From a virus, in IMG/VR virus record IMGVR_UViG_3300042401_001747: a DNA stretch of 64,000 bases; one strand, 5' to 3'. This document shows positions 1 through 48,453 of this stretch, in pieces. A program made the position numbers and the translations under genes. The notes below the pieces were generated by a model. That model was given only the letters and a program-made list of their open reading frames with translations, was not told the DNA's origin and made no database searches. Each line of letters starts with the position of its first letter. Positions within the stretch are counted from its first letter, which is position 1.

Positions 1-3000
1 TTTTCTTCAGCTAGCTTTTCTACAGATTCCTTAACCTGTTCTGCGGACATGCCGGAGAAGTCAACACCGTATCTGTCTGAGAGGTACCTGAGTTGTTCTG
101 GTCTCCGTATGTCGTCTTCTGGCCATAGGTCGAATTCTCTCTGCAGCCCCCATGCGATGCTCTTTAGCGTTGTGGTTTTACCAGTTCCAGCACCTGCAAG
201 AATAGACAATATACGCGGGTCTTTGTTTCTAATGAGATTCATGGCGACCGCCATAATGTCTCGCTGCTCTTCGGTTGGCTCGTTTGACAAACCGAATGCA
301 AGCCTGAGCGCTACCGTCTCATCTATGGGCTTTATTTCTGGTGCTTTAGGGTTCTTTCCCTTAATTGGGCCCCTGCCGCTAGAAAGTCTTCCAGACGGAG
401 TAATGACGATTCCGTCTTTGGTCTTTGTTGGAAGATTTCGTGAAAGAGAACTCATCTCTCGTTCTGCGAAAGACGTTCTCCTAGCCTCTGGCGTGAAATC
501 GTCTGGGAACTCTACGTCCAGCATGTCTTCCATTGTTCCGCTTATGCCTGGTGTTGGTTTGATTCTTGGAGAATCTTCGTATCCAGTAAGCATTGGTACT
601 TCTAGCCAGGTGTTGTCTTTGCCTTTTCGTTCATCGTCTGGAATACCAGCAAGTCTTCGCATTGTTGATGAGCGGTCCAGCAAGTAGTCGTTTGCCTGTT
701 GAGCAGAAAGGATGGCTCTGTGCAAAGCAAGTGGGTCCGCCGTCAGTTTCTTCAACCATCCAGCTACATAAACAAGGTGATTATCTCTGATTGTTGGCTC
801 AAGACCCATTGCACCCATTGCGAATGCTGAACCTATCTCAGCAATCAGCTCTTCAAATGCGTACTGTTCGTCGCCAAATTCTTTACCCAAAGTTCTGTTT
901 AGGCGTGTTGGGTGAGACGTCCAATGAACGGTTTCATGCATCGCTGTTCCATAAAAAGCCGCAGCATCGACAAATTGTTCAAAAGCAGGCATATGAATTT
1001 TGTCTGTTGATGGACGATAAAAAGCGTCTTCGCCAAATGATTCAACAAAATCAGGACCTATTTCTTTAATAACATTTTCTAAGTCTTCAAGTCTTGCTTC
1101 TTGATTTATTTCTGTTTCAATAGGGTCGTAGTATTTCTGCGCAAGTCCGGCTACCTCGGCTACGTTGTAAACAGTCTGAGCCTCGTAATAGCGCCCCTCA
1201 ACGACTTCTTTTCCGTTTATGTCGGTAAATGTTCTTCCTTCTCGTGGAACGAGAATGGAGACGCCCTTGCTTCTTCCGCCTGGCTTAAGTTTTCCACCAA
1301 GCTTTTTCCATTGACCTTCTCCAGCCCATCGAGGTAGTTCATACCCACGAGACATGCCAATCAAACTAAGAGTGAGTTGGTTCATGCCCTGATACACGCG
1401 ACCACGCGTAGGGTTTCTTGCATAGAGCTCAGGGCGACGCCATGGAAGCTTCCAGTTCTTATCGCTATTTGGGTCGTTCATTAGGTCGGTCAAAAGTTTT
1501 ACTACGTCTTTAGACATTGCTTCGTAGAATTCTTTAAGCTGTGAGGAGCCTTCTGGAAGCTGAGCTTTGTCAGGAAGTTTGCCAGAAGAGAAGCGTTCTA
1601 CGCTTGTCATCGATTGACCAGCGATTGGTATGCGCTCGGGTTTTAGGCCTCTGGCCAACTGGGTGTTTTCTCTGTTAAGAACCTGTGACGCCTTGGGCTT
1701 TTTCTTCGGCTTTTCGCGCTCCATTTCGCCTTCAGCCATCTTCTCAACGCTTGCCATGTATTTGTCAAGCTCAGCAATAGCTTGCTTCAGTTTCTTTATT
1801 TGGTCTTTATCTGAAGCTCCATCAAGTACGCCCTGAAGCTCGTCTCGTTGCGACTCGGCAGAACCGTATTTGGCTGCAGAATCTACATCGGGGTCATCCA
1901 TGCGTGGTACATCAAACAGTTTTCCGCTGTTGAGTTTTGAGCCGACCGGCTTGACTTTTCCATCCCCAGCACGGTCGAGAATCTCCGATTCAGGCTTGCG
2001 TACTTGAGCGCGAGATGGTTTTGGGTTACGTATTGAACCAGGACCATCCGGTGTTGGGTCTGGAGTAGCAAGTGGAATACCACGAAGGAACAAGCCTTCA
2101 CCGACTATTCCGTTCAGGTTGGCATCACGTGCGGAAAATGGGTCAAAATCTTCCGCCCCAATTGACGTGAAGAATCTCCCAGACGAACGACCCCCACCAA
2201 TGTTTGGCTTATTTGTTAAGCGACCACCAATAGCACGACCAAGTCGGTAACTAGCAGCCTTCCACTCTATGTCATTTTGATTTATAGATTTTTTTTTTAG
2301 GTTATCAACCGCTGTGTCAACGGCGTCAATCAAATCATAACTAATCCCGGACGTCATTACGATTCCGTCTACGTCTACAAAAGACTCAACGCCGTGATAG
2401 TCAAATATTGGGTCTAGAGCCTGCTTGACCATGAAGGCAAACTTTGGCACGACAGGCAATAGATAGGCCTTCTCTTCAGGCCAATCACTTTGTGAACCGA
2501 ACTCGCTCAGCAACTTGAACTTACGACGCTTTTGTCTACGTCTTCCGACGGCCCCACGAAGAGCCGCTATAGCCAACTCTCCAGGGTACTTAACCTCAAG
2601 GTCAGAAACGTAGTCTTCTTGAGTGAACTCTTCTTCGATTTCGTATGTCTTTTTAGCGGTTGAATCACCCTTTACTACTCCGTTTGGTATGACGGCGAAA
2701 CGGCACTTTCCTTCTGATTCAACTTCCATGTCAATAATCTTGCAACTATCGCCACCTTGATAAAAAACGCAATTAGCACACTTAACGCCTATGCCGGCGA
2801 TTGAGTTTTCGGCAGCTGGCGTGTACCCAGCCCACACACCTTCTGAGTCTTGATTAAACTTGCCATGACGTTTTGTTATCTTAAGAAGCGCATCCCTTAG
2901 GTCTGCTTCTTCTTTGTCCAAGTTGGTCGGGTCGAATTCTTGCGTATCATCATCTTCGTACTCAACTGCTGGAAGCGCAATTATCTGGGGACCATTTTGT

Positions 3001-3920
3001 CCTGGTCTTACAGCGATAGGCATGGACATTGCCGGTGGACGCGTAGGACGCTGAGGCTGGTTTATTACGATTCCCGGAGACCCAACTGGCATCATTGGCA
3101 TTCCAGGCATAGGCACTGACGGTCTGCGTGGCGCAACAACCGTAACTGGCTCAGGTGCTCCAAACATGTATCGTCCGCGACCTCCGCTAAAATGACACTT
3201 GTATCGGCCAACTTCACCGTTGTCCGCACGACGAGCAAAGGTTAGCTCTTCTCCGTTTACGTCCATCAAGGAAACTTTTGCACCAAGCATTAAGCCTAAT
3301 TGCTTTTCAATTTCTGCACGGTTTATGGTTTCTTCTTCGTCTTCTTCCATATAAGAAACTGGACCGGAATATCCACCTTCTTCTGACTTTACGGAAATGG
3401 TGCCGGTGAGTTGGTTTGCCCCATGAAGAACTGGAGATACTTCGTATAGTTCAAGTTCGTAAATAACGTTTGCTTGCGACTTTTGGTCGAACTGGGCACG
3501 AAGCGTCTTGTAGCCAATTGACCATTCTTGTTCTTCGCCAAAGAAAGCGACCATAGCGAACGCTTCTTTACCTTTTTCAGAGTTGAGGTTAAACTGAACG
3601 CGAGCAAAAAGCCCACCGATTCCTGCCATCTTCATTTTTAAAGGCAGTCTTGGGTCCGTGTTTGGTACTTCGTAAATCTCTAAAACTTTGCCGATTGGGT
3701 CGTTCCAGTTGTGGCCCCAAACAACACGAGGTTTCCGGCGAGTAAGGCTTTTGGTGAATGCGCCAGTGGTAACAATGTCCCCCACCGAGTCCTTATTGCC
3801 TATCCCGGCTACGAAGCACTCAACCATCCCCTGAGCTTCATCTAGGTTGATGGAGCCACCTTTGGTCGCAAAGGATGTTCCAAGCGTAGTTGACTTATAT
3901 TCGTACAGTTCAGGCAACAT
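1..3920 (-). CDS. Giant polyvalent protein, truncated by the window edge (>1306 aa): HK97-family prohead protease + HiPIP-like domain + ArdC-N + HExxH metallopeptidase + SF1/UvrD-like helicase
   Basis: Hand translation from ATG 3920 stays open to position 1. Protease: GNKDSVGD..GAFTKSL..VVWGHNW..PIGKV..WSIGY..LYEVSPVLHGAN (~3390-3850). CANC-x8-C-x12-C (2703-2780). ArdC-N: WKLPW..RNPTRGRVYQGMN..RGYELPRW..TVYNVAEV (~1140-1540). Peptidase: AFYRPSTDKIHMP..MHETVHWT..YAFEELIAE (~670-1090). Helicase: PTEEQ..LAGAGTGKTTTL (<1-275). Absent from the ORF track. Confidence 0.93.
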   Translation of the reverse strand, partial: MLPELYEYKSTTLGTSFATKGGSINLDEAQGMVECFVAGIGNKDSVGDIVTTGAFTKSLTRRKPRVVWGHNWNDPIGKVLEIYEVPNTDPRLPLKMKMAGIGGLFARVQFNLNSEKGKEAFAMVAFFGEEQEWSIGYKTLRAQFDQKSQANVIYELELYEVSPVLHGANQLTGTISVKSEEGGYSGPVSYMEEDEEETINRAEIEKQLGLMLGAKVSLMDVNGEELTFARRADNGEVGRYKCHFSGGRGRYMFGAPEPVTVVAPRRPSVPMPGMPMMPVGSPGIVINQPQRPTRPPAMSMPIAVRPGQNGPQIIALPAVEYEDDDTQEFDPTNLDKEEADLRDALLKITKRHGKFNQDSEGVWAGYTPAAENSIAGIGVKCANCVFYQGGDSCKIIDMEVESEGKCRFAVIPNGVVKGDSTAKKTYEIEEEFTQEDYVSDLEVKYPGELAIAALRGAVGRRRQKRRKFKLLSEFGSQSDWPEEKAYLLPVVPKFAFMVKQALDPIFDYHGVESFVDVDGIVMTSGISYDLIDAVDTAVDNLKKKSINQNDIEWKAASYRLGRAIGGRLTNKPNIGGGRSSGRFFTSIGAEDFDPFSARDANLNGIVGEGLFLRGIPLATPDPTPDGPGSIRNPKPSRAQVRKPESEILDRAGDGKVKPVGSKLNSGKLFDVPRMDDPDVDSAAKYGSAESQRDELQGVLDGASDKDQIKKLKQAIAELDKYMASVEKMAEGEMEREKPKKKPKASQVLNRENTQLARGLKPERIPIAGQSMTSVERFSSGKLPDKAQLPEGSSQLKEFYEAMSKDVVKLLTDLMNDPNSDKNWKLPWRRPELYARNPTRGRVYQGMNQLTLSLIGMSRGYELPRWAGEGQWKKLGGKLKPGGRSKGVSILVPREGRTFTDINGKEVVEGRYYEAQTVYNVAEVAGLAQKYYDPIETEINQEARLEDLENVIKEIGPDFVESFGEDAFYRPSTDKIHMPAFEQFVDAAAFYGTAMHETVHWTSHPTRLNRTLGKEFGDEQYAFEELIAEIGSAFAMGAMGLEPTIRDNHLVYVAGWLKKLTADPLALHRAILSAQQANDYLLDRSSTMRRLAGIPDDERKGKDNTWLEVPMLTGYEDSPRIKPTPGISGTMEDMLDVEFPDDFTPEARRTSFAEREMSSLSRNLPTKTKDGIVITPSGRLSSGRGPIKGKNPKAPEIKPIDETVALRLAFGLSNEPTEEQRDIMAVAMNLIRNKDPRILSILAGAGTGKTTTLKSIAWGLQREFDLWPEDDIRRPEQLRYLSDRYGVDFSGMSAEQVKESVEKLAEE

Positions 3921-4046: not shown

Positions 4047-6107
4047 CTAAACAGTTTGACCGAAGTTCCAAGCGGAACGAGCCTCATTTTCAGCCAGTTG
4101 ATATTGACCATAAGCGAAGAAGTCGGTATACATTTCCACTAAGCCGTCTCTGAAGAACGAATATCGTCTTTCTTCGTCTGCGTATTCAAAAGATTTAATC
4201 ATAAGTGAATTAATTTCTGAAAAATTCGCTTCATTTATTCTTTTAATTCTTGAAACGTGAGCATCAACCATTGCGCGAAGGTCCTTGACTGGGAGAGCTT
4301 TTACTTTTACTCCCTTTTCGGACGCTTCGTTTACTCGTGACTCAAAAGAATCGCTAATAATAGAAGAAACAACCGGACGGATGTCTTCCTCTATCTGCTT
4401 ATTCCATGTCTCAATTGACAAAACCGAGTCAACATCAAGAGTTCCGTGCATTAAGGCCTTTTTAGACTTCAAGCCGCTAGCTTTTTCTAGCACTACTCTT
4501 TGTTGTCTTTCCGCTACACGCTCAACGCTTCTCGCAAGAATTTCAGTCCATCTTTCAATTGACTGTTCGTTCTTGTCAATCATTTCTTTTACTTGAATTT
4601 GATTACTAGGAGAAGACGCAACAGTCATTGGCTGCGGAAGTCCACCAAGTGCCTCGGTAGGAATAGTGGTTTGAGCCAATTCGCCACCTTCGGCCATTCC
4701 GGCTTCGGCCATTGCCCCCTGCATGGTGTTCGTATCCAGAGGAATAGTCTCTGCCATTGGAGGAACCGGAGTTGGCATTCCAGGTGGCATTCCAGGCATT
4801 CCAGGTGGCATCCCCGGCATTCCTGGAGGGGCCCCAGGAGCCCCAGGAATTTGAGCCTGTCCTTCTTCCATCTTCTTTTTCGTGTTTGCAATAGGAATAA
4901 GGTTTGGATTCTGAAGAAGCGAGTCAGCCAAGTCGGCATCTACTTCTTTGCGTGACGAGCCAGTTCTGTACTCGTTCGCACTAATTAGCCCAGACTGGAA
5001 TTCCTGTAGTAAATACTTGTCCCGCTCTTGCTTGTAAAGCATGAGGATTGGAACTTCGGTTGTGTCAAAATCCAGATAGTACTTTTCATCAAGTTCGTCC
5101 AGCGCTCTAGATATTGGCTCCAAATGGGGAAGCATTGTCTCCATCCAGAAAACACGAATTTCTTCTGAGGCGTTACTGAAGGTTCTGCCAGAGGCGTTAC
5201 CAATAACAGACTCAGGAACACCAAATGCAGAAAGTATTTCTTCTTTAGTTATCTGACGCATCTGGACATAGGCAGCATCGCGTGGGTTTGCAGAAGTATC
5301 GACAAAGTCAACTCCGTCGTCTGCCGCGATAACCGTAGTGTGTCCAGCCCTTGCTAGGTTTCCTCTAAATCTGTTACGAAGTTCTTCTTTGTCGTCTTCA
5401 TCAATTTCACCTCTGACAACCAACAGTCCACCCGGACGTCCGTCATTAAGAAGGTAGTTTCTGTTGTAAATCTTGGCAAGGTTTTCAATTTCTATGGCCA
5501 CGCCTGCTGCCTCAAGAGGCGTAAGCGATAGGTAAGGGTCAATGGGGTGAGGGCGTCTAACCCAGCAGACATCTTCTGGCTTGAGTATTATTTTCTCGCC
5601 ATAAGGCATTTGCACTTCGTAGCCAGAAACAAACGTTTTAGGGTCTGGTATCGGTGCTGTTGACTGAGGTGGAAGAAGGTTGAGCCCAATGATTCCACCA
5701 TCACGTCCACGTATCTTTTCTATAAAAGCTCCACGAGTACCCAGCATGAGCTGAGCAGAAAGCCTGTATCTAAAAATAAAAGAGTTTTCTCCGACATTGG
5801 CTTTATTGTTTAAAATCTCCAGCAGAGGATTGCGATTTGCTTCGCGGCCCTTAACAATTTCGCCGTGTTTTGAATTGTCTTTTCTTAAAATCATCGGCAA
5901 GCGCGCTTGGTTTCCCGAGATTGCGTCAATACACCTATTGACCCACGTGATTTTAGACATGCCTTCGCGATAGGCGCGCTCTATGTCCCAAGAGTCACGA
6001 TATGCCTTCCCAGCGAGGGATGGGTTCATGGATATGGGGGCTCCGTATCCTAAATTTTTGCTTGATTGTGAGCCCAAGCCTTTGTTTTGAGGCGAATTCC
6101 AGCCCAT
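4047..6107 (-). CDS. Portal protein (HK97 family) with Pro/Gly/Met-rich linker and C-terminal helical extension
   Basis: WVNRCIDAI, NPLLEILNN, LSLTPLEAA, NDGRPGGLL, EEILSAFGVP..G, TFSNA motifs; lies next to the prohead protease. Confidence 0.92.
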   Translation of the reverse strand: MGWNSPQNKGLGSQSSKNLGYGAPISMNPSLAGKAYRDSWDIERAYREGMSKITWVNRCIDAISGNQARLPMILRKDNSKHGEIVKGREANRNPLLEILNNKANVGENSFIFRYRLSAQLMLGTRGAFIEKIRGRDGGIIGLNLLPPQSTAPIPDPKTFVSGYEVQMPYGEKIILKPEDVCWVRRPHPIDPYLSLTPLEAAGVAIEIENLAKIYNRNYLLNDGRPGGLLVVRGEIDEDDKEELRNRFRGNLARAGHTTVIAADDGVDFVDTSANPRDAAYVQMRQITKEEILSAFGVPESVIGNASGRTFSNASEEIRVFWMETMLPHLEPISRALDELDEKYYLDFDTTEVPILMLYKQERDKYLLQEFQSGLISANEYRTGSSRKEVDADLADSLLQNPNLIPIANTKKKMEEGQAQIPGAPGAPPGMPGMPPGMPGMPPGMPTPVPPMAETIPLDTNTMQGAMAEAGMAEGGELAQTTIPTEALGGLPQPMTVASSPSNQIQVKEMIDKNEQSIERWTEILARSVERVAERQQRVVLEKASGLKSKKALMHGTLDVDSVLSIETWNKQIEEDIRPVVSSIISDSFESRVNEASEKGVKVKALPVKDLRAMVDAHVSRIKRINEANFSEINSLMIKSFEYADEERRYSFFRDGLVEMYTDFFAYGQYQLAENEARSAWNFGQTV

Positions 6108-11696: not shown

Positions 11697-12560
11697 ATGG
11701 CTAATGGAATACATGAATCTCTGGAATCCCTGGCTTTCGACATAAGCCTTCTTGAGTCCCTCCATAACAATCCACGAAGAGGAGACGTTAATGCGATTAT
11801 GGCATCCTACGCCGAGTTTGGACAGATTAAACCAATAGTGATAAGACCCAACGGAGACGGTACAGCAACCGTCATAGCGGGCAATCACCAACTAGAAGCA
11901 GCAAAACTTCTTGGGTGGGACAAGATAGCTGCTGTTCAGTTTGACGTCGATGACACTAGGGCCATGGCTTTTGCTATTGCTGACAACCGAACAATGGAGC
12001 TTGGGTACACCGAGCCAGAACTTCTTGAAGAGTTTGTTTTAGAAATGGTCGACTTTTATCCAGAACTTTTAACTGGATTGGGATGGGATGAATTTTCAAC
12101 AGCCGAAATTGAACAGCGCTTCATCAGAGAAGACAATCGGGTAGTCGAGCCAGGGGCTGGATTTATGTCCCCTGTAATTAATTCTGATTACGGAAACGGA
12201 TTTAGTTCTCGGCTTGATAAATTTTCCGACTATGAAGATTCTGATGAAGATGCTCTAGTTAAAGACGCTCCAGAAATGGATAGAAATGTTGTTTCAGTAA
12301 CTCAAACAGGAGACGGAAAACAGAGAATCGACATCATGCCAGGCATGAATCAAAACGATGCAGTAATTAGAGGTTCAACAACAATTGCTCCTGGCTCGGC
12401 ACCAAGAGCCGTCGTTCAGTACACAATCGTGTTTGACAACACGGACCAACAAGCACGATGGTATGAATTCATGAAATGGCTAAAAGCTGACCCAGCTGTT
12501 GCTGGCGTAACAATGGCCGAAAAACTAATCGACTTCATAGACCAACACATAGAAATATAG
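11697..12560 (+). CDS. ParB/Srx-like N-terminal domain protein
   Basis: NNPRRGDV..IMASYAEFGQIKPIV..VIAGNHQLEAAKLLGW..IADNRT. Confidence 0.88.
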   Translation: MANGIHESLESLAFDISLLESLHNNPRRGDVNAIMASYAEFGQIKPIVIRPNGDGTATVIAGNHQLEAAKLLGWDKIAAVQFDVDDTRAMAFAIADNRTMELGYTEPELLEEFVLEMVDFYPELLTGLGWDEFSTAEIEQRFIREDNRVVEPGAGFMSPVINSDYGNGFSSRLDKFSDYEDSDEDALVKDAPEMDRNVVSVTQTGDGKQRIDIMPGMNQNDAVIRGSTTIAPGSAPRAVVQYTIVFDNTDQQARWYEFMKWLKADPAVAGVTMAEKLIDFIDQHIEI

Positions 12561-12568
12561 GATTACCA

Positions 12569-12772
12569 ATGGAACAGACCATAGAACAAAAATGTAGATA
12601 CCTCCTCGGCAGAGGAAAAGTATCGCCGGCCGAGTGCGCTGAAGTTTTAGAGGCGCTTGATACTCGCATCTCTGAAGCAACGTACTGGAAAAGCGTAGCT
12701 GAAAACATGATGCGCGAGAACAACGAGCTTCGTGCCGAGGTATCACGCCTCACTCAAATCGCAAGATACTAA
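12569..12772 (+). CDS. Small hypothetical coiled-coil protein
   Basis: 67-aa ORF abutting both neighbours. Confidence 0.6.
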   Translation: MEQTIEQKCRYLLGRGKVSPAECAEVLEALDTRISEATYWKSVAENMMRENNELRAEVSRLTQIARY

Positions 12773-13912
12773 ATGACTCGTCAGCGCCTATTTCTTGATA
12801 TGTCCTGCGTTGACGCAGCAAGACAGAGAATACGGCACGTCTACGACACCTTCGATACTGTCTGTGTACAGTTCTCTGGAGGCAAAGACTCCACTGCGAT
12901 TCTGTATCTAGCAAAAGAAATACATGAAGAGCGAGGCCTTGGTCCAGTAAAGGTAATCTTTCGAGACGAAGAGATGGTCAGTCCTACTGTCGTAAAGTAC
13001 GTGGAAAAGGTTCGCAACTACGACTGGGTTGATATGGAGTGGTACTGCCTTCCTTACCCTGCAGAGATATGGTTTCTAGGTCACAGGCTTACTACTATTT
13101 TGTGGAGCCAGCAAAGATTCGAACAAGACAGATGGGTTAGACCCATGCCTCCGTGGGCCATTAGTGGTAAGCATTTTGGTTTAACTCATGAAGTTTCTCT
13201 TCCTGAGCAGACCGACTATTACACGATGCAGGGGAAAAAGGGAAACGTGGCTTTCCTGACCGGTGTTAGGGCTAGTGAATCAATGGTTCGTTATCGCTCT
13301 GTAGTTCAAAAATTGCACGAGAACTACATCAATATCCCATACAAGTTAAAAAAGGGAATCCCTTTAAAGTTTGCAAAAATAATCTACGACTGGAATACGA
13401 ATGATGTATTCAAGTTTATTATTGAAGAACATGAAGCGGAATACTGTGAGTATTACGACCTGGCTGTAACCACGGGGAGCAACACGAGAGTCGGCATCCC
13501 TCTGCATGCTACGGCAATTCGCAGAATAGGTGACGTAGTTGCTACTGAGCCAGAATTCTACGACAGACTGTTTGACTGCTTTCCATACATAGATGCCCAA
13601 AGACGCTTGTGGGCTGATTTTGATTCAGAAAAACTCATAGAGAGCTATGCGCGAAGAGGATTTGATGGGGCGTCTGCGTTTATTGACAAGTACCTAATAG
13701 GTGATAGACGAAAGACCGAGGCTCGTGTTTATGTTTCAAAATTTAGAAAGAAACACCTGAGCGACCCTCATGGATATCCAGTCAGCTGGCTGATAAGAAA
13801 CTTAATGCTTAACGATATTGACGTTAATTCACCAACCCCTGTGGGTCCCAAAACCAGAGCTCACGCTGTACGAGCACTGGAACTAGAAAGAGCAGATATC
13901 TATGAATATTAA
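12773..13912 (+). CDS. PAPS-reductase-like PP-loop protein (IbrA/DUF3440-like)
   Basis: DAARQRIRHVYDTF, VQFSGGKDS, FRDEE, GVRASES..R, IYDWNTNDV, YYDL. Confidence 0.85.
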   Translation: MTRQRLFLDMSCVDAARQRIRHVYDTFDTVCVQFSGGKDSTAILYLAKEIHEERGLGPVKVIFRDEEMVSPTVVKYVEKVRNYDWVDMEWYCLPYPAEIWFLGHRLTTILWSQQRFEQDRWVRPMPPWAISGKHFGLTHEVSLPEQTDYYTMQGKKGNVAFLTGVRASESMVRYRSVVQKLHENYINIPYKLKKGIPLKFAKIIYDWNTNDVFKFIIEEHEAEYCEYYDLAVTTGSNTRVGIPLHATAIRRIGDVVATEPEFYDRLFDCFPYIDAQRRLWADFDSEKLIESYARRGFDGASAFIDKYLIGDRRKTEARVYVSKFRKKHLSDPHGYPVSWLIRNLMLNDIDVNSPTPVGPKTRAHAVRALELERADIYEY

Positions 13913-14459
13913 AATCGAGTACGTTGAACCATCCCTGCTTTCTGTTCCTGAATGGAAAGCCACCTATACCCTGCGTCCAGAGATGCTTGTCATTTCTGCC
14001 TCTTTGTCTCAGTTTGGTTTTATTCAGCCGATACACGTCAGGCTTGCCACTGGGGAGATAATCGACGGCTCAGAAAGATATCTACTGGCAACGAATATTC
14101 CACAAATTCTTGCCATGAGTGAGGGGAAAATACCAGTCGTCTATCACGACGTCGACAAAATGGATGCCATGATGATGCATCTTCGACTCAACAGGGGGCA
14201 CTCCCATGTGCTCGCCCCCAAGACATCCGACATCATTAGAACACTAAGACGCTCTGGCAAATACGGCATTTCAGATTTTGAAGACATGCTTTGCATGCGT
14301 TCAGAAGAACTCTCTTTAATGCTTGACGGAAGTCTCTATAAAGTGAGAAAAATCAAAGAGCATAATTACGCCAGGGCATGGATTCCAATCGAGGCTCCGC
14401 CTGGCTCACTAGAGTCATCTACGGTCTCTATTGAAAGACCCCCAAATCCTGACAGATAA
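13902..14459 (+). CDS. ParB-like protein (IbrB-like)
   Basis: PEMLVISASLSQFGFIQPI, EIIDGSERY, IPVV, LRLNRGHS; directly follows the IbrA-like gene. Confidence 0.75.
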   Translation: MNIKIEYVEPSLLSVPEWKATYTLRPEMLVISASLSQFGFIQPIHVRLATGEIIDGSERYLLATNIPQILAMSEGKIPVVYHDVDKMDAMMMHLRLNRGHSHVLAPKTSDIIRTLRRSGKYGISDFEDMLCMRSEELSLMLDGSLYKVRKIKEHNYARAWIPIEAPPGSLESSTVSIERPPNPDR

Positions 14460-20859: not shown

Positions 20860-23800
20860 ATGGCAGACGAAAATATTAATGTAAAAATTAAATTTGATGC
20901 CCAAACTGGTGAAATTCGCCGTGCAATTGCGGAAATTGCAGTTTTACACAAAAGACTAGACAAGCTTTCTAGCGGCAGAACAGACAAATTTGCCAACAGT
21001 ACAAACAAAAGCTTAAAAAGCGTCACTAATGGCTGGAAGAGAAGCTTTGACTTTATAGATAAAGGCGCAAAGATGGCAGGCAAAGGCCTGACCAAGTTCC
21101 TGGGAATGTCCGTCAAGGGTGTTGTTGCTGAAATGGCAATACTTGGCGCAACAATGATTGGTATTCACGCATTATTTGCTGCAGGACAATTTCTAGTTAA
21201 AGCCTACAGGGGTGCCATGCAGATGCTTTCGGCGGGCGCGGCGGGGGTGGTCGTTGCAATATCTGCAGCCTCAGCGGCAATACGAGAACAGCAAGCAGCA
21301 ATATACGCCTATAGAGGCAAAGGTGCTCCAGCTTTTGGGTCAGCAATGAATCAGACTCGCATGGCGATGAGAAACCTACAAGCCGACGCGGCTTTGTCCA
21401 GTCTCGGAATAGAAGCACTCAACAAGGCATATGGAAATATGTCGAAGTCAATGAACACCGGACAAATAAACCAAAGCGGTGGAGCAATCAAAGCTTTGAT
21501 GGACTTTGGTTCGGCAGGTCAAGACCCAGCTAAAGGGCTTGAGCAAGTATCTATAGTTATAGCCGCACTTTCTGACAAAAAGAAAAACATCAGTGACGTC
21601 ATAACTGAGGCAAAAAAACTAGGTCCAGAAATGGAATCCGCCTTAAAAAAGGCAAACGTCAAGACCAAGAAACAATTCCAAGAACTTCTGATGTCCGGAG
21701 ACCTTGCTAAGAAGGGTGGAGTTTCTGGTCAGTTTGACGCAGTGAACAATACTTTGATTAGCCAAATGAAAGGGTACTTCACTCGTCTACGTGGTGAGTT
21801 CGCAGATTTTGGTGACCAGTTTCTTGAGCCGTTAAAAGTTGCATTCGCTCGCGTATTTGACAAAGTCAGAACTGACTTAATGCGTGTTTTTGCTGCAATT
21901 CAGTACAGCTTTGGTGCAGAGGAAGGCATAAATAACTTTGCAAGCGCTATAGAAAAAGCATCTGGCTGGCTAGTAAAAATGATTCGCGAATACCTACCTG
22001 CCGCAATTGGCATGTTTGACAGAATCGGTGATTGGTATACCAAATTCAAACGTGGTTGGAATCTTGTTCTAGATGCAACACGTCCGCTCATCGACGGAGC
22101 AAAGGTTCTGTATAAGGCCTTGGACCCGGTATGGGATTCCATCAAGGGGGGCGCTCAAAACCTTACGCTTTTCAAGGACCTCCTGGAAGAAAATAGTTTT
22201 TTTGTTGAAGAGTTCGGTCAACGCATAGCAGACATCATCGACACCCTTTCCGAATACTTTATGGGTCTCAAGAAAAACTTTGCCCAGATGGCTCCATTTA
22301 TAAACGACCTTTTGGCGGGTCTTAATCAGGTGTTTAAAGTTCTTACCGGAATCATGACTGTTGGAGCTGGAAGCGGTCTCGGAGCAGCTCTTGCTCCACT
22401 AATGGGTGCTGCTGTTTTGGGAAGAGGATTGGCCGGAGTCAAGGGCCGCTTAATGCCCAAGTCTGGAAATCACACTCAAAACATGAACGTAACCGCTACC
22501 AACGTAAGCATTAATAATGGTGCTGGTCCAAGGAATGCCGGGACAACAAATGAAGGCCGCAGAGTTTCTTCGGGCAGTACCGCTTCTCCCATGGTTTATC
22601 CTGGTAGTAGCGCTTTAGGAAAAATTTCTGCACCTTCTGTTTATGGTCCGTCATCTCAATTAAGTGTTTTTAAAGCTAGCACCAATAAAGAAGCATTTGC
22701 CGCTATGCGAGACACTCCAAACCGGAGATTTATTCAAAATATCCGAGACGGTAGCAAGGTACAGGTCCGTGGAAGCGACTTCGAGACAAGACACTCAGAA
22801 AGATTTGCGGAAAGACAAGCAATGGGACGAGGAGCTGGCTATGCGGCTTTTGGGCAGCCAAAGGACCCATATTCGTCGCCTACCATTATGGGTCGTGACG
22901 GAAAGCCTCAACCAAACCCTCAGTTTAATCTTGCAAAGTCTGCTCGTTTTCGTGCCGAACAATCTCTCAACGGTCGCTCCAGACGCGAATTGCATCAAAT
23001 AGCAGCAGACAAGGGAGTCACTGGAATAACCAAGAAATCTACAAGAGAAGAAATCAATAGACAAATACTTGCAAAAAAGGGTTCAGTTGCAGAGTTTAAA
23101 AACGACCCTCGCCCTGTTGGGATAGGAACCGGGATTAGTAATGACGCTAAACGTTTAAAAAGCTTTGCTAAAGGTGGGGCCAGCAGGGTTAAGTATGGTG
23201 GGGCGCGAGCATTGGGTGGCTACAGGGGCGCAATGTCTTTTTTACAATCTGGTGCATACGACCCTGAAACAGGAGAATACAAAAACACAAAAGAACAACG
23301 TGATGAAATAAACAAAAGATACGAAAAAGCCACCAGCGCCGATACAAATCGTAACCGTGGCAGCAGAATGTTCGCAAAATTAAATCGAGCTCGCGAAACC
23401 AATAGAATGCTGCGAAATGATAGCAAATTTGGAGCCGGCACAAAAAAGTTCAATAACAGTATGGGGGCAAGGGCTGGTGTAGGAATAGGACTTGGAATGG
23501 CAAGTCAATACGCTCCAGAAGAAATGCGTGGAGCCATGGCTCTTGGAGCAACTGTTGGCACCATTAACCCAATGCTTGGACTCGGTGTTGCTGGAATAGG
23601 TGGAGCCATGAAGGCTCAGGGCGCAATGAAAGGTGCCCTGTCTGGTGCTGCTGGTGGAGCGGCTCTTGGCGGAATGTTGGGACCACATGGTGCGGCGATT
23701 GGTGCCGGAATAGGTCTACTTGTCGGCGGAATAATGGGAGCCGTAAATAAGGGTAAAGCTCAACTTGCTGCGGCTAAAGCGACAGTCATGGAAAGCCTCG

Positions 23801-25653
23801 GAGAGCTTTACATGGGAACCATGAAAAGCGCAAATGCAAAATTCCAGGAAAATTATGAAGCTTCTCAGAGAGGCGTAAGCTTAGCCGGAAAAAGTGCCAC
23901 CATGCTTGGGGTTGGAAAGGGGTTTGCAAAAACTCAAAGCCGTATTCGCGGTTCCGTGGAAGGCGCAATAGCGGGCGCGGGCGGAAGCTACATGTTGGGC
24001 GGCAAGCAGGAATTTGCCAACCCAGTAGCAGCCCTTGAGGCGTATTACAAGACTGCAGAAGGAAGCAAGGTCAGCGAAGAAGACAGAAAGACGCAGAAAA
24101 AAAAGGCAACCGGCACGCTGCGAACACTGCTGGAACAAACCGACCCAGCCGTTCAAAAGCAACTTGGAGAAATAGATAAACAAAACAGTGCAAGAATAGA
24201 TGCGTTATCTAGAGCTACTGGTAAGAGTGGTGCAGAGCTAGAGCAAATGGCTAAAACAATGGGTGTTGACCTTTACAACCCAACCGTACAATACACCGAA
24301 CTTTTAGGAAAATTTACTGCAGGCATTATAAAAACAGGAGCAGCCCTCAATGACGCGCTGACTGATAATTTTCTTGCCGGAGCAAATCCCTTCAAGGAAA
24401 CCAGAGAAAAAGATGAAAGTCAAGCCGCTCTTAATCAAAACATAGCTGGTTTAGGTGATGTTCTCCGTGGCAAAGGTAGCAAAGCTGAGAAATCGAAAGC
24501 CATTGGTGCATCTATGGAGCAGCAATTTGCGCAGCTGCTAGCAGTAAATGGTGGAGACGCTACAAAAGCTTATCTGTCCTATAACGAAATGTATGGACAA
24601 GGAGAAACGGGGGGTCTTTTTGCAAAAGGCGCGGCATTGGAGGGACAAGGAAAAACTGTCCTGCAAGACAAAGACGTTATAGCGTCTCAAGCAGCCATAA
24701 AAGAGGGGGCAGTAGGTAACGCCGCTGAGCAAATACGTGCAAGATTAGCAGATAAAGGAATGACCGTTGCCCCAGGTGTCTTGGAAGCAAAACTATCCGG
24801 AAAGACTCCTCAAGAACTAACAGGCATATTAGAGAATATTTCAAATTTTGACAAAGACAGTAGCGTTCCAAAGGGTGGTGAACAAAACAAACTGAAAAAA
24901 GCAATAGGTGGAGAAACCGCGGCAGACGTAACGACAGGTCTTGAGGGCCTTCTGGGAAGCGGCGTAACTGTTACTGCCGAAGACCCAGACAAGCTTAACA
25001 AAATCGCCGATGCTGCTACTGATTTTTCTACGGCTGCAAAAGGCTTAGAAACAGCAGTCACCACCTTTAACACCAATATGGATGGCTTCTTTAAGGCTCC
25101 TCTCGGCAACGCACCGGGATGGTGGTCGGCCGGACTAAAGGTTACTGGTACGGGTGACGATATGCGTCTAATGCCTGGAGACACTTCAACCCCTCGCGGC
25201 GGTGCAATCGGAGACACTGCAACAAGCAAGCTTTCTCAAACAATGGGCCGTCACGCCGCCATGAACGGTCAGTTGACAGGAAAAAGAACAGTCACTTCTT
25301 CTCTTAGAGACTATGCACTTGGTTCAATCAACTCAGACCACGCAACTGGTTCTGCTTACGACCTCACAGGACAGAACCTTGGTCAATACGCAAAGCTTGT
25401 TCATGCAAATGGAGGCTTTGCTGAGTTCCACGGTTCCATGGCTAATCGTCATCTTCATGTTGTTCCTGGTGCCGGAAAGATGGGCGACACAGCAACATCT
25501 ACGCCAGTTTCTACAGCATCTAGTTCCGGTGGCGGAACCAATAATTACTATACTTTTGAAATAAATGGCAACAACGCTGCTCCTGAGGTAATCGCCAACA
25601 TGGTCATGGCCAAAATTCAAGAAAAAGAACGTTCTAACAGGCAGAGAACATAA
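20860..25653 (+). CDS. Tape measure protein with C-terminal M15-like Zn peptidase
   Basis: 1597 aa, Ala/Gly-rich helical, follows chaperone; C-terminal TSSLR..SDHATGSAYD..HLHV. Confidence 0.9.
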   Translation: MADENINVKIKFDAQTGEIRRAIAEIAVLHKRLDKLSSGRTDKFANSTNKSLKSVTNGWKRSFDFIDKGAKMAGKGLTKFLGMSVKGVVAEMAILGATMIGIHALFAAGQFLVKAYRGAMQMLSAGAAGVVVAISAASAAIREQQAAIYAYRGKGAPAFGSAMNQTRMAMRNLQADAALSSLGIEALNKAYGNMSKSMNTGQINQSGGAIKALMDFGSAGQDPAKGLEQVSIVIAALSDKKKNISDVITEAKKLGPEMESALKKANVKTKKQFQELLMSGDLAKKGGVSGQFDAVNNTLISQMKGYFTRLRGEFADFGDQFLEPLKVAFARVFDKVRTDLMRVFAAIQYSFGAEEGINNFASAIEKASGWLVKMIREYLPAAIGMFDRIGDWYTKFKRGWNLVLDATRPLIDGAKVLYKALDPVWDSIKGGAQNLTLFKDLLEENSFFVEEFGQRIADIIDTLSEYFMGLKKNFAQMAPFINDLLAGLNQVFKVLTGIMTVGAGSGLGAALAPLMGAAVLGRGLAGVKGRLMPKSGNHTQNMNVTATNVSINNGAGPRNAGTTNEGRRVSSGSTASPMVYPGSSALGKISAPSVYGPSSQLSVFKASTNKEAFAAMRDTPNRRFIQNIRDGSKVQVRGSDFETRHSERFAERQAMGRGAGYAAFGQPKDPYSSPTIMGRDGKPQPNPQFNLAKSARFRAEQSLNGRSRRELHQIAADKGVTGITKKSTREEINRQILAKKGSVAEFKNDPRPVGIGTGISNDAKRLKSFAKGGASRVKYGGARALGGYRGAMSFLQSGAYDPETGEYKNTKEQRDEINKRYEKATSADTNRNRGSRMFAKLNRARETNRMLRNDSKFGAGTKKFNNSMGARAGVGIGLGMASQYAPEEMRGAMALGATVGTINPMLGLGVAGIGGAMKAQGAMKGALSGAAGGAALGGMLGPHGAAIGAGIGLLVGGIMGAVNKGKAQLAAAKATVMESLGELYMGTMKSANAKFQENYEASQRGVSLAGKSATMLGVGKGFAKTQSRIRGSVEGAIAGAGGSYMLGGKQEFANPVAALEAYYKTAEGSKVSEEDRKTQKKKATGTLRTLLEQTDPAVQKQLGEIDKQNSARIDALSRATGKSGAELEQMAKTMGVDLYNPTVQYTELLGKFTAGIIKTGAALNDALTDNFLAGANPFKETREKDESQAALNQNIAGLGDVLRGKGSKAEKSKAIGASMEQQFAQLLAVNGGDATKAYLSYNEMYGQGETGGLFAKGAALEGQGKTVLQDKDVIASQAAIKEGAVGNAAEQIRARLADKGMTVAPGVLEAKLSGKTPQELTGILENISNFDKDSSVPKGGEQNKLKKAIGGETAADVTTGLEGLLGSGVTVTAEDPDKLNKIADAATDFSTAAKGLETAVTTFNTNMDGFFKAPLGNAPGWWSAGLKVTGTGDDMRLMPGDTSTPRGGAIGDTATSKLSQTMGRHAAMNGQLTGKRTVTSSLRDYALGSINSDHATGSAYDLTGQNLGQYAKLVHANGGFAEFHGSMANRHLHVVPGAGKMGDTATSTPVSTASSSGGGTNNYYTFEINGNNAAPEVIANMVMAKIQEKERSNRQRT

Positions 25654-43105: not shown

Positions 43106-43402
43106 CTAGAACCACCAGAAGTGTTTTAGGATAGACAGACTAGCCAGAATTACCCACGCGACATTGAAAAGAATGATTGTTGGAAGGGTCTTTTCCGTGG
43201 ACGACCAAATGAGGGCAATGCTGGAAGCGATGGCAAATATGTAAACCCACCACCACTGTTGACCAAGAAGCAGACCAGGGAAGATAATGGCGATTTTGGT
43301 GGCAAATCCCCAAGCCTCCACGATGTTTGGTTTAGTCCAATACCCCTTATGGGACATTGTCTTTGTTGCTTGTATTACTTTTTGCAGCATCTTTATAACC
43401 AT
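43106..43402 (-). CDS. Small membrane protein (about 3 TM)
   Basis: Three hydrophobic segments; overlaps the P450 stop. Confidence 0.65.
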   Translation of the reverse strand: MVIKMLQKVIQATKTMSHKGYWTKPNIVEAWGFATKIAIIFPGLLLGQQWWWVYIFAIASSIALIWSSTEKTLPTIILFNVAWVILASLSILKHFWWF

Positions 43403-44640
43403 AGAAAAGGATTAATATATTTCTTTTTTTGTTTAATGTTTATAGAGCGTGGTCCCCATACAGATTCGTATGATTCTCTGAATTGTGCTTCCCCCACGAT
43501 TGAATAATCGCCAATTCTCTTTGCAACAACCTTCATGCACTCCTGCATTTGTGCTCTAGCTAAAGCAGCACCTAGGCAATAATGGATTCCTCCACCAAAC
43601 GAAAGGGTTGCGCCTTTTCTGTTCGGTCTATCAATGATGAACTTTTCAGCATCTTTAAATACTGATTCATCATGATTTCCTGCAGTTAAAGTAACCCCCA
43701 TGATGGTTCCTTTAGGAAAAAGAACATCGTTGTATTCAATATCTTCAGACGCGATTCTAATCATGTACCTAAATACACTGTCTAGACGAATGCACTCTTC
43801 TAGTATGTCTTCTACGTTTTCTTCATTGCGGAGCATTTCTAACATTTCTGGTTTGTCTTCCAGCATGATTGCAATAAGCCCAAGTTGACATCTGGTCGTG
43901 TCTATACCAGCCAAAAGAACCGCGTTAATTAATAAAGATATTTCAAGAGTTGTAAGTTTTTCCCCGTCAACTTCCGCCTTAATCAAAAGGCTAGTTAAGT
44001 CGTCTGTTGGGTTTTCTCGTTTTTCAGCAATCAGTTTACGAACATATGCAGACAGCTGAGCCTGAGTATCTACTACAACGTCCTTGTCGTGGTCGTAGTT
44101 TCCGCCGAATGTCTTGAAAACATCATCAGCCCACTGACCGAACATTTGCCAATCCGAATGTGGGACTCCAATAATTTTAGAAATGATGTAAGACGGGTAC
44201 TTATCAAACACTTCTACTTGCAAGTCAAATTCCGAAAGGTCAGAAATCTCATCAATTATTTTATTAATTGCTTTGTTCATTTCAGGACGCAATGAGTCAG
44301 CAACTTTTGGAGAAAATACAGGCCCTACAATTTTTCTAAGACGAGCGTGGTCTAGCCCTTCAAGGTTGATTATTGACTGTTTTCTATTGGCCTTATCCGA
44401 TTCGCTAAGGTGAGGGTTGTTTTCACTAAAAAGATAGAGGGCGTTATGCCATCTCTTGTCTTTCAGCATTGCCAAAGAATGCTCGTGATTTATAACGACA
44501 AAAGAAAGACCCGAAGAAGCCAGCCAGTTTTCCTTGCTGGCATTGAGTGCTATTTCTAGTTGCTCGTATGTACCGTGTTCGGATTTTATTATCTTAGGGA
44601 CAACATAGGGAAGTTCTAGGTCGTTTACATTTACTGGCAT
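43393..44640 (-). CDS. Cytochrome P450
   Basis: DHARLRK..FSP, I-helix AGIDTT, K-helix EECIR, heme motif FGGGIHYCLG. Confidence 0.95.
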   Translation of the reverse strand: MPVNVNDLELPYVVPKIIKSEHGTYEQLEIALNASKENWLASSGLSFVVINHEHSLAMLKDKRWHNALYLFSENNPHLSESDKANRKQSIINLEGLDHARLRKIVGPVFSPKVADSLRPEMNKAINKIIDEISDLSEFDLQVEVFDKYPSYIISKIIGVPHSDWQMFGQWADDVFKTFGGNYDHDKDVVVDTQAQLSAYVRKLIAEKRENPTDDLTSLLIKAEVDGEKLTTLEISLLINAVLLAGIDTTRCQLGLIAIMLEDKPEMLEMLRNEENVEDILEECIRLDSVFRYMIRIASEDIEYNDVLFPKGTIMGVTLTAGNHDESVFKDAEKFIIDRPNRKGATLSFGGGIHYCLGAALARAQMQECMKVVAKRIGDYSIVGEAQFRESYESVWGPRSINIKQKKKYINPFLWL

Positions 44641-44648
44641 TTGTTCCT

Positions 44649-45311
44649 TTAAAAGTCTAAGGTTTCTTCAAAAGACTTTTGTTTGTATGTATTGGCAAGT
44701 TCTGTAATCCATGCCTTGAATTCTTCTGACGCTTCAGGATACGGGTGAGGAATCATTTTGTAATCTTCTTCACCTTTAAAAAATTTAGCCAGATGCATGT
44801 CTGGTAATGAATCCAGTTCATCAAGAATTGATTGAGGTGGGTCAAATGTGTCAAGAGCGAGTTTTGAGTATGTAGCCATTGGGTGGTCGGAGTTAAATGG
44901 CTCCCCAACAAGAAAAGACCATTCCCTCATTGTCTTGAAGAATTGGAATACGGATTTTGCTATCCACATGGACGAAGGAGTTGGGTCAGCCTCTATGTCG
45001 GCCCAGGTTGCGTACTCTATATAAGTTATATAAAAATGGGGCGACACATCCATTATGTGCTCGTATCTAGTAATCTTTTTTACTTCCATGATTCCTTCGG
45101 AAACCAAAGACCGTGAATACGGCGTAATGCTGTGATTCTCGTAAGGTGTTCCATGGGAAACAAGTATTCCAGTGTACGAAATATTGTCACAACGAACAGA
45201 GTCTCCAGAATTTGAATTTTGGTCTTCAGTTAAAAAAAAGCATTTTTCAATAAAGAACCCTCCCTTTTTTGTAGGGTCAGACTGTTTTAACAGTTTTTCT
45301 GGTTCAAGCAT
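44649..45311 (-). CDS. Hypothetical protein (paralog of 37603..38298)
   Basis: MREWSFLVGEPFN..LPDMHLAKFFKG. Confidence 0.7.
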   Translation of the reverse strand: MLEPEKLLKQSDPTKKGGFFIEKCFFLTEDQNSNSGDSVRCDNISYTGILVSHGTPYENHSITPYSRSLVSEGIMEVKKITRYEHIMDVSPHFYITYIEYATWADIEADPTPSSMWIAKSVFQFFKTMREWSFLVGEPFNSDHPMATYSKLALDTFDPPQSILDELDSLPDMHLAKFFKGEEDYKMIPHPYPEASEEFKAWITELANTYKQKSFEETLDF

Positions 45312-45576
45312 TTTTTAATTCATCCAATTTCTTGTTCACAATTTTTAATTTTTCCATATCGCGAACGATAGTGTTTGTAGCCCCCCATTGCAACCGTTCC
45401 GGGCGCGAAGCGTTATCAAGGTGACTGGAAACAAACCCTACAGGGTCAAAATTTGAAAAATCCAGCGTTTCTACATCAATTCCAAAAATTAAACAACAGT
45501 AATATATGTTTTTGTGCAGGGAAACTACAAGAGCCTCTAAAAATGCTATTTTTTCAGTATTTGTGTTAAAACCCAT
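45304..45576 (-). CDS. Small helical protein (paralog of 48881..49111)
   Basis: K...L....SL..NIY..L..GID.E..; ends LKIVNKKL. Confidence 0.6.
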   Translation of the reverse strand: MGFNTNTEKIAFLEALVVSLHKNIYYCCLIFGIDVETLDFSNFDPVGFVSSHLDNASRPERLQWGATNTIVRDMEKLKIVNKKLDELKNA

Positions 45577-45578
45577 AC

Positions 45579-46385
45579 CTACATATTATCTGAAAAAAAC
45601 CTAGAGATAATGCCCTTCTTCTGCGAGGCTAAATCAGCAATTTCTTTATCAACTCTTATACGCTCTCTTCTGTAGGGAGCAGCGGTTCCCTCAAAAGGCA
45701 TAATATGCCCTGTTCCAAACCCTTTGCTTGCAACATATTTAAAATTTGTTTCGTCCGCAACAATTAGTTTACCAATGTTTGTTTTGCGCTCAAAAGGTAT
45801 CAACTGCGCCAATGGGGTTCCCCATTTAATTGAAAAAGCAGATTCGGCTTTAATGTTTAAAACAATGTTGGCTGTATGGTAAAAATCAGTATGAACTACG
45901 GCAGGCAAAACATCGTAGTCTTTATTTGGTTCCCACATAACTGGAAGAATCAAAACAGACCATCCTGGTGCGGTTTCCACCCTCCACGGGTTAACGAGTT
46001 TTGGATACTGAGCCTCTGAGAATTCACTGTTTCTTACTGCACTAACTGGACATTCTCCTGTTGCAGCAAAAGGGAAAGACTCTACTGCCCCTATGCTTAT
46101 TTCACTTTGCTGGAGCCCAAAGTTTGCCCCTCTTGTTTCCCATGAACCATCTTGTCCTGGTCGGAAATTATAGTTTGTCCAACAAGGTATGGTTAATCCA
46201 ATACTAAGAAAATCATTTATTCCCGCACATCTACGAAGGGACCCAGGATTTTTGTGAATCCTTTTAAACCATGCTGGCTGTGTTTCAACCGAATTAATGA
46301 ATGGAGGCATCTCGTTAAGCCTGTTGTCTATTGGCGTTATGCGAATTTCTCCAGGTTTTAGTTTTTTGTTCTTCACAAAACCCAA
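45579..46385 (-). CDS. Uncharacterised beta-rich protein often found with phage 2OG oxygenases
   Basis: PAWFK..RRCAGI.D..G..IP.W, NPWRVETAPGWS, VVHTD, IKWGTPLAQLIPF. Confidence 0.65.
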   Translation of the reverse strand: MGFVKNKKLKPGEIRITPIDNRLNEMPPFINSVETQPAWFKRIHKNPGSLRRCAGINDFLSIGLTIPCWTNYNFRPGQDGSWETRGANFGLQQSEISIGAVESFPFAATGECPVSAVRNSEFSEAQYPKLVNPWRVETAPGWSVLILPVMWEPNKDYDVLPAVVHTDFYHTANIVLNIKAESAFSIKWGTPLAQLIPFERKTNIGKLIVADETNFKYVASKGFGTGHIMPFEGTAAPYRRERIRVDKEIADLASQKKGIISRFFSDNM

Positions 46386-47881: not shown

Positions 47882-48453
47882 TGAAACCAAGTTACCATAG
47901 AGTATTTCGTTCCGCTAATCACTGGATGCGCTATGTGTGTATAGGGGAAATTACTGGGAAAAAGAATTACAGAGCCAGCGTTCAATTTAATTTTTACATC
48001 AAAATTTGGGAACTCAAGTTCGCCACCTTCGTCAGGTTCTCCGAGGCATGCAACCAAACTGAAAACCCTTCTTGAGTCAGGGGAGTGGTCATGATGTGCG
48101 TGATACTCAGCAAGTCCTGAATATTTAAGTATGGATATCAATTCATGTGCTCCATTGAAAAGTCTGTGTTCTCTTACATAGTCATGAACAACATCAATAG
48201 TCGGTCTATACACTTCTTTTCTAAAAACTGATGACAGTTCATCCTCTGGATATGGCGGGAGAAGTGTTGTTACAGAACTGGATAAAGAGGTTCTGTATTG
48301 GCTATTTTCACCATTTCCAACCCTGGATACATCCCAGCAAAGGTCTTCGCCAAAACCGTTGGCTATTGCTTCTTCAAAGCGATTAATAAAATTGCTTGGG
48401 TTAAACACATCTTTATAAATAGAAATGCAAACAGCGGGATTATCTACAATCAT
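47878..48453 (-). CDS. 2OG-Fe(II) oxygenase (prolyl-4-hydroxylase-like)
   Basis: ILKY..YHAHHD, GGELEF, LFPSNFPYTH..PVISGTKYS. Confidence 0.92.
   Translation of the reverse strand: MIVDNPAVCISIYKDVFNPSNFINRFEEAIANGFGEDLCWDVSRVGNGENSQYRTSLSSSVTTLLPPYPEDELSSVFRKEVYRPTIDVVHDYVREHRLFNGAHELISILKYSGLAEYHAHHDHSPDSRRVFSLVACLGEPDEGGELEFPNFDVKIKLNAGSVILFPSNFPYTHIAHPVISGTKYSMVTWFQ

Follow-up and report, generated by a model that had tools for sequence, protein, structure and literature searches.

The left end of the 64,000-nucleotide stretch that we have analysed as a whole, called here the window and belonging to the IMG/VR virus record IMGVR_UViG_3300042401_001747, poses a simple question: Why should the prohead protease of a phage, which in HK97 is the cargo-free protein gp4 of 225 residues, form the N-terminal domain of a protein 13 times longer that continues with an ArdC unit and a helicase? 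The answer that we consider on balance probable, judging from sequence comparisons, is that this giant is a protease-led polyprotein, the cargo of which is delimited by a short coded motif and would be processed in the head.

A Prohead Protease at the Head of a Giant Frame

An earlier note, made from the letters of the window, had described an unbroken minus-strand frame running from the ATG at 3920 to the window edge and had predicted from it a polyprotein of more than 1300 residues. Open reading frame (ORF) listing and translation confirm the frame, which spans 3..3920 of the minus strand (as do, within it, all the features of the giant discussed below) with 1306 stop-free codons and its 3' end open at the window edge. 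These codons form the N-terminal part of a protein of 2916 aa in a 95%-identical relative (L002:10001-18751, protein P0122), which carries in addition, past the part equivalent to the window, a UvrD-type helicase and a C-terminal module of 525 aa; here and in the following, the sequence past the window edge is taken from near-identical IMG/VR relatives. The ORF is complete and single in 12 of the 23 related loci found in IMG/VR, all on independent contigs (2887-3020 aa, 65-97% identity), and the order of the modules, namely S78 protease, X, ArdC, helicase and C-terminal module, is kept in seven more distant clusters with proteins of up to 4107 aa, in which the protease is 83-89% identical and the cargo 26-50% identical. 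This architecture is solid. The phage is present in 18 runs from lakes, and the contigs of four lake-water metagenome runs have zero indels; among the substitutions listed for these contigs, 38 of 40 fall at third codon positions, as counted from their coordinates. From the single-ORF orthologs, the indel-free contigs and the third-position bias we therefore conclude that the frame is genuine and subject to purifying selection.

The unusual length of the ORF and its run of ten A, a kind of sequence that is error-prone in sequencing, could suggest that separate genes have been fused by an artefact of assembly or by a frameshift. The probability of such an artefact is practically nil, considering that one frame is kept in the 12 complete orthologs, that the more distant clusters repeat the same module order and that contigs from four runs agree without indels. 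Two proteins, P0134 and P0136, were considered as natural split forms without the protease (ArdC-helicase-C-terminal), and rejected: they begin 30-56 nt from contig ends and consequently are truncated, not split. Two contig joints, with skips of 157 and 214 nt and sides of only 22-44 nt, lie in the most conserved stretch of the protease and are read here as cross-assembly of related phages.

The protease itself, which the earlier note had recognised as HK97-type, lies at residues 32-175 (3396..3827) and matches the Pfam family PF04586, Peptidase_S78, well above threshold (E 2.3e-11, 44.6 bits with a cut-off of 21), as well as the head maturation proteases of PHROGs (phrog_80, E 9e-26). In the BLASTP alignment to HK97 gp4, H70 pairs with H65 and S134 with S114, which we take to be the catalytic residues of gp4; none of H70, S134 and H166 varies among 120 homologs. 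Some 95 protease positions hardly vary across the same homologs, in contrast to the cargo, in which identity falls to 26-50%; such constancy might be expected of an enzyme locked in by many substrates. Two complete relatives of ~157 kb possess exactly one S78 protein each, and no S77 or ClpP protein was found in either of them; hence, the fused domain is their single prohead protease. Structural comparisons were less informative: a PDB sequence search with residues 1-330 gave no match, and Foldseek with an AlphaFold2 (AF2) model of residues 1-665, of low mean confidence (pLDDT 55.6), returned weak rows only, among which the Epstein-Barr virus protease ranked third and T4 gp21 ranked 24th, none with E below 0.001, and was not used as evidence.

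A Recurring Linker Motif between the Modules

The evidence that carries our interpretation is a short motif, [RK]-[LF]-[SA]-S-G, that occurs at residues 662, 776, 1178 and 2389 of the 2916-aa protein. Three copies fall within the window: KLNSG at residues 662-666 (1923..1937; KLSSG in relatives), RFSSG at residues 776-780 (1581..1595; LSSG in relatives) and RLSSG at residues 1178-1182 (375..389; L[SA]SG in relatives), while the fourth lies past the window edge. In the alignment of orthologs each copy forms an island of identity inside a linker rich in indels, exactly between units defined by Pfam. The units thereby set apart are a protease core of 73 kDa, a charged spacer of 13 kDa that is probably helical (segment B, 1596..1922), the ArdC-N and MPTase domains together (45 kDa), the helicase (135 kDa) and the C-terminal module (59 kDa), and the unit between motifs 2 and 3 has the size of a free-standing ArdC. 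The placement and conservation of the motif are solid, and so is its enrichment: the mean number of copies in shuffled sequences is 0.03, and the four observed were not reached in any of 5000 shuffles.

The motif extends to two other giants of the head module, in which it occurs three and nine times in the 95%-identical relative. In the complete 158-kb relative G006, there are 8 strict sites in the 8,890 aa of the three giants versus 2 in the 34,842 aa of the other ORFs. The additional giants, which lie outside the window in relatives, are P0126 (L026:1833-9002), of 2389 aa with a HEHAH sequence and the linker motif, and P0127 (L027:6268-15297), of 3009 aa, which combines two GNAT-like units, an RNase_T/DEDDh exonuclease, a HEFGH sequence and a long block of pentapeptide repeats with the same motif; altogether, the phage devotes ~25 kb to its three motif-bearing giants. 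A literature search for RLSSG returned unrelated papers only, and a pattern search for P0062 gave no IMG/VR relative.

Would these sequences need to be cut at all? They could function as flexible linkers, or as docking peptides for the portal, the capsid interior or a chaperone, with the giant working as one chain. Linkers of small residues rich in Ser and Gly are common, cleavage is a prediction here, and the virion RNA polymerase of N4 is packaged unprocessed (PMC5512222). Generic linkers, however, do not have a fixed hydrophobic residue with basic flanks, nor would they be expected to remain conserved where the surrounding linker varies in both sequence and length, or to bracket a unit of the size of free-standing ArdC. 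We consequently deem this alternative very improbable.

Cargo Modules of the Giant

The full ArdC pair that had been read from the window, an ArdC-N domain followed by a HETVH peptidase, is borne out by three profile matches. The ArdC-N domain, which binds single-stranded DNA, spans residues 797-888 (1257..1532), with the PF08401 ArdcN match at residues 820-888 (E 1.4e-13); the zincin domain MPTase-PolyVal (PF18818, E 3.4e-39) spans residues 946-1069 (714..1085) and has its HETVH at residues 995-999; and the anti-restriction profile phrog_7245 of PHROGs matches residues 806-1088, covering positions 15-309 of its 324.

The helicase start, described previously as a Q-motif with AGAGTGKT, also stands. 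Only its Walker A sequence, GAGTGKT at residues 1243-1249, lies inside the window (3..287, with the remainder past the edge), where the P-loop/UvrD start at residues 1228-1261 gives a sub-threshold Pfam match. The full-length relative P0122 matches PF00580 with E of 1.1e-10 and presents the motifs of superfamily 1 (SF1) helicases intact and in order, with large insertions: GAGTGKT at 1243, DEAQD at 1665, GDDRQAVYAFR (motif III) at 1691 and SRAK (motif VI) at 2255.

The 525-aa C-terminal module follows in the relative. Wherever a library-wide HMMER search finds it in a giant (1865-4107 aa) it is C-terminal; the other matches are short proteins and fragments. Its model is confident (pLDDT 82.5), and fold searches gave no convincing counterpart: the best E values were 1.4 for Foldseek in PDB and 0.41 in BFVD, the template modelling (TM) scores in the ESM atlas did not exceed 0.29, and a search with ESM features gave no usable match. 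The best Z score against VIA-wide, 4.9, concerned a helical sub-domain of ~100 residues resembling helix-turn-helix (HTH) or HAD-cap arrangements. The missing match does not make the predicted fold new.

Between the protease domain and the first motif there are two further conserved regions. A small alpha/beta domain, X1, at residues ~200-260 (3141..3323), is modelled by AF2 as a block with pLDDT of 77-88 and is conserved in the family consensus; a search with ESM features of residues 185-662 gave no usable match. Downstream of it lie four cysteines, C381, C384, C393 and C406 (2691..2792; family consensus CxNCV...C...GxCRF), which possibly form a metal or Fe-S site. The earlier note had called this a HiPIP-like domain; the four conserved cysteines are there, and the HiPIP identity finds only a sub-threshold match to PF01355 (E 0.034, 14.9 bits with a cut-off of 22) in a region of low AF2 confidence. 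Considered together, such unlike domains, S78, ArdC-N, MPTase, UvrD helicase and at least three modules without known identity, give the giant an architecture of polyvalent type.

The Leader Element and a Slippery Run

Just before the first linker motif lies an element of ~70 aa, at residues ~545-615 (2076..2288), with the pattern RLG...IGGGR...FDP..RD-x-N-x-NG...EG and a DxDxDG-like loop, the latter being present in 77 of the 79 family members scanned. A homologous stretch occupies residues 23-90 of the third giant, where it likewise lies just before the first site. The homology is weak within the phage (BLAST E 0.04) and becomes clear when the N-terminal 450 residues of the third giant are used as the query, since residues 25-99 then align well with the S78 giant of record G013 (E 1.3e-9). 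We read the leader as a candidate capsid-targeting or docking element.

The leader is immediately preceded by the only homopolymer of at least 9 nt in the entire window, the A10 run in CTA AAA AAA AAA (mRNA sense; 2289..2298; nt 1623-1632 of the coding sequence), which is in phase as A_AAA_AAA. Such a run is kept in five subclades that have diverged in the flanking codons, and as A9 in one, whereas elsewhere only ~50% of the Lys codons are AAA; in the wider family the run is absent. Both other frames stop within 2-7 codons after it, yielding a short product of 545-549 aa that ends just before the leader. Slippage at the A10 run may produce a short, cargo-free protease in this clade. Only 6% of the sequence words were present in the RNA runs.

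The situation resembles that of dnaX, the tail chaperones G/GT and the retroviral Gag/Gag-Pol insofar as an in-phase A_AAA_AAA is conserved here at the nucleotide level with stops nearby in the other frames. In contrast with these systems, staying in frame here yields the long form, which slippage would truncate, and the run is known from sequence in one part of the family.

Would the Giant Be Packaged?

How, then, might the phage exploit such a protein? In the mechanism that we favour, the head-module gene that directly follows the portal gene of an uncultured lake myovirus of ~157 kb would supply this phage's sole prohead protease as the N-terminal domain of a polyvalent protein of ~324 kDa. 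The protein would enter the assembling procapsid via the protease, the leader part or both, and then be cut at the conserved [RK]-L-[SA]-S-G linkers into five products having the masses given above: the protease core (~73 kDa), the spacer, a complete ArdC unit, the UvrD-like helicase and the C-terminal module. Retained in the head, these products would accompany the DNA into the next host, there to protect and handle the incoming genome. Two further giants of the head module would use the same motif, and the A10 slippage may add the cargo-free short protease in this clade. Packaging, cleavage, the identity of the cutter, ejection and slippage are what we infer from the observations reported here.

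The genomic context is that of head assembly. The portal gene (4047..6107, minus strand) lies directly upstream of the giant ORF, the large terminase gene sits across a divergent junction from the portal and giant side, and the order terminase, portal, S78 giant, acidic protein (about 458-560 aa) and second giant is constant across clades. Since a tail sheath gene and numerous fibre genes are present elsewhere in the window, we assign the phage to the myoviruses. The acidic protein next to the giant (P0123, L026:135-1817, in a relative) has 560 aa, is extremely acidic and rich in Met, Glu and Asp with clusters of Cys, and shows no family match; possibly it is a scaffold or internal head protein.

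The same set of genes could be explained otherwise, by an unpackaged protein that acts in the producing cell in late replication, repair or anti-defence, either as a cytoplasmic polyprotein or as several enzymes in one uncleaved chain, its adjacency to the portal being historical. Helicases are ordinary replication enzymes, encapsidation is a prediction, and a copy of the motif in a tail-module protein implies that the protease may act outside heads. Against this stand the fixed order of portal, S78 giant, acidic protein and second giant across clades, and the fact that complete relatives have no prohead protease other than the fused N-terminal domain, because of which at least the protease part must enter procapsids. 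Moreover, ArdC-N, MPTase, pentapeptide repeats, GNAT and exonuclease domains belong to the repertoire of delivered proteins (PMC5512222), and it would fit delivery that ArdC, with its role at DNA entry, is encoded in a late head operon. An unpackaged giant appears, in our judgement, rather improbable.

Several points nevertheless weigh against delivery in the form that we propose. Both cleavage and presence in the virion are predictions, and the nearest cultured relatives do not have the linker motif. The HK97 protease is present in several tens of copies per procapsid, and at a similar copy number a protein of 324 kDa would fill much of the head volume. The leader is an equally good candidate as packaging handle as the protease, to which the earlier note had attributed this function. 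Furthermore, one copy of the motif belongs to the tail and not to the head: the protein in tape-measure position (20860-25653, plus strand, 1597 aa), which follows sheath, tube and chaperone-size genes, has KLSSG at residues 35-39, near its N-terminus, and the 66%-identical G006, a complete relative, retains this copy at residue 35. The remaining two points, a conserved zincin sequence in the second giant and a different type of candidate site around the protease, regard the enzyme that would do the cutting.

Which Enzyme Would Cut the Linkers?

All three giants of the phage carry HExxH, and that of the second giant, at ~570-600, is kept in every clade examined (three other clades); for this reason the linker motif could be a site for a zincin. 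In addition, a second type of candidate site, hydrophobic-x-K|S as in HK97, flanks the protease domain: YEYK-S at residues 6-10 (3893-3907) and ISVK-S at residues 175-179 (3386-3400); the lysines of these sites, K9 and K178, do not vary within the family. The capsid protein (L026:13686-15053) contains REIK-S, and the delta region of the capsid protein of Gordonia phage DalanDe contains EIKS four times. The true S78 site may be of this second type.

In this alternative, the LSSG-type linkers might be cut by a zincin, acting in trans if it is the conserved HExxH domain of the second giant and in cis if it is the MPTase of ArdC type, for which autoprocessing has been predicted (PMC5512222); S78 would then cleave only at x-K|S sites, namely those of the capsid protein and those bordering its own domain. 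However, HExxH is missing in cis from S78-headed homologs that have 6-10 sites, and the motif is uniform even though the three zincins differ in their HExxH and only one has a Pfam zincin match.

Additional evidence against a zincin comes from the capsid protein, P0125, which has a helical N-terminal region of ~95-100 aa ahead of its Phage_capsid domain. At the boundary between this delta region and the N-arm, the present clade has x-L-[ST]-S-R-E-I-K-S. Sister clades have V-K-S-L-G-S-S there, which matches N-K-S-L-G-S-D of HK97 gp5, a protein cut between K103 and S104. The linker motif thus has as its core L-small-S, the residues that follow the scissile bond of HK97; this core is found again at the capsid boundary of the present phage and is the only part that boundary and linker share. 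A strict co-variation of the boundary with the linker motif was considered and rejected, for one clade reads S-V-Y-G-S.

Altogether, we regard cutting by a zincin as unlikely, though the least remote of the alternatives weighed here, and place S78 ahead of it as the probable cutter, not decisively. Of the processing role that the earlier note had assigned to the protease, therefore, the conserved linker motif gives strong circumstantial support to processing as such, with S78 as the likelier cutter.

Variable Cargo in the S78-Headed Family

The earlier note had proposed to examine whether the cargo behind homologous proteases varies. A word-indexed search retrieved 500 S78-headed proteins of 718-2286 aa, and an IMG/VR scan 305 loci, so that the family comprises at least 300 loci. 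The protease is N-terminal in every member examined, and the cargo does vary, comprising pentapeptide repeats, arrays of sigma-70 region 4/HTH domains, and domains without assignment; this variability is solid. The commonest 4-mers in long members are GLAS, GLRS, GFAS and LSSG, and in 120 S78-headed homologs the broader pattern [GRK][LFM][SAR]S occurs 468 times versus 77 expected, with 57 of the 120 proteins individually significant and with basic residues upstream of the pattern in the motif logo.

In evolutionary terms, these data allow a wider, more tentative proposal, which we consider possible without deeming it probable: a large clade of lake phages, with at least 300 loci in IMG/VR, might practise modular capsid loading. 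A fixed N-terminal driver, formed by the sole prohead protease and a DxDxDG-type leader, would be followed by interchangeable effectors separated by an x-[LFM]-small-S cleavage code that the protease would use on the capsid protein as well. The cargo would have been swapped between lineages (ArdC with helicase, sigma-4/HTH arrays, pentapeptide DNA mimics), and in the ArdC-helicase clade the A10 run would set the ratio of bare to cargo-laden protease.

Comparison with Known Systems

Polyvalent proteins were defined by Iyer, Burroughs, Anand, de Souza and Aravind (2017), who predicted their packaging and processing by zincins (PMC5512222). The giant conforms to that definition, since a phage with portal and terminase encodes it and numerous effector domains of unrelated kinds, such as ArdC-N, MPTase and helicase, are joined in its single chain; delivery and proteolytic processing were predictions in that survey too. 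It departs from it in two respects. The assemblin-like peptidase was reported as lying 'always at the C termini' of polyvalent proteins (PMC5512222), whereas here the protease is N-terminal and is the sole prohead protease; and the recurring linker motif and shared leader are not described in the survey, in which UvrD-type helicases were found only in a few giants of actinomycete plasmids. Our literature search found no paper describing a polyvalent protein with N-terminal S78.

Head proteases that recognise a short motif and trim at it numerous proteins destined for packaging or ejection are known from T4, where gp21 acts with capsid-targeting sequences, and from phiKZ and SPN3US, with gp175/gp245 and propeptides; N-terminal leaders are reportedly removed (PMC5694885, PMC10052503, PMC9026906). 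The short motif, the many head proteins and the leaders are shared with the giants studied here, for which processing is a prediction. The proteases of those phages are reported to be separate small S77 proteins and the substrates to be encoded by separate genes, while here S78 is covalently joined to its cargo and the motif divides multi-enzyme chains.

With HK97 gp4 and gp5 the system shares the protease family, the delta-like N-terminal domain of the capsid protein and, in sister clades, the K-S-L-G-S boundary. In HK97 gp4 the C-terminal tail has a targeting role. The ArdC of the IncW plasmids pSa and R388 has the same pair of ArdC-N and zincin and, as a free protein, the same size, but in the phage this pair is embedded between two linker motifs of a head-module giant; its anti-restriction role here is a prediction.

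Among cultured phages, megablast gave zero matches and no tblastn match covered at least 80% of the protein. The nearest cultured S78 domains (38-44% identity) belong to Gordonia phage DalanDe gp27 (1633 aa) and Streptomyces phage Gilgamesh gp52 (641 aa), which are also fused to long extensions and encoded directly upstream of the gene for the major capsid protein. In DalanDe, a Gordonia Bendigovirus, the protease lies in the C-terminal third of gp27, fitting the pattern of Iyer et al., while Gilgamesh gp52 represents a short N-terminal version; neither has ArdC or helicase at matching positions, nor the linker motif. Gilgamesh (L034, MN234216 31978-45852) has also a gene for 4624 aa just upstream of its N-terminal-protease gene, without the linker motif, and could take the place of giant head-module proteins in experiments.

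Other Genes of the Window

Two further loci of the window merit mention. Among the fibre genes lies a gene resembling flavin-dependent tryptophan halogenases (43393-50798, minus strand; phrog_2928, E 6e-106). On the plus strand (11697-14459), a gene resembling phosphoadenosine phosphosulfate (PAPS) reductases is found between two ParB-N-like genes, in a block that adjoins genes for an Erf/Rad52-type annealase, a PD-(D/E)XK exonuclease and RuvC and is syntenic across the whole phage family; this block may constitute a module for DNA modification or recombination.

Implications for the Biology of Lake Phages

If our interpretation is correct, large enzymes would be loaded into the head without a separate targeting system, as the tail of an enzyme that is obligatory in every procapsid, and would be released by its own cleavage code. 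The pair of protease and substrate would be directly testable without a cultured host. The unannotated ORFs of 2,000-4,700 aa in metagenomes would then become readable as strings of deliverable modules, with borders predictable from a motif of 4-5 residues, and would offer new candidates for modules that act early or counter host defences, among them the C-terminal module of 525 aa with its confident model and no known fold. The concept of polyvalent proteins, in which head proteases were previously seen only at C-termini, would be extended accordingly.

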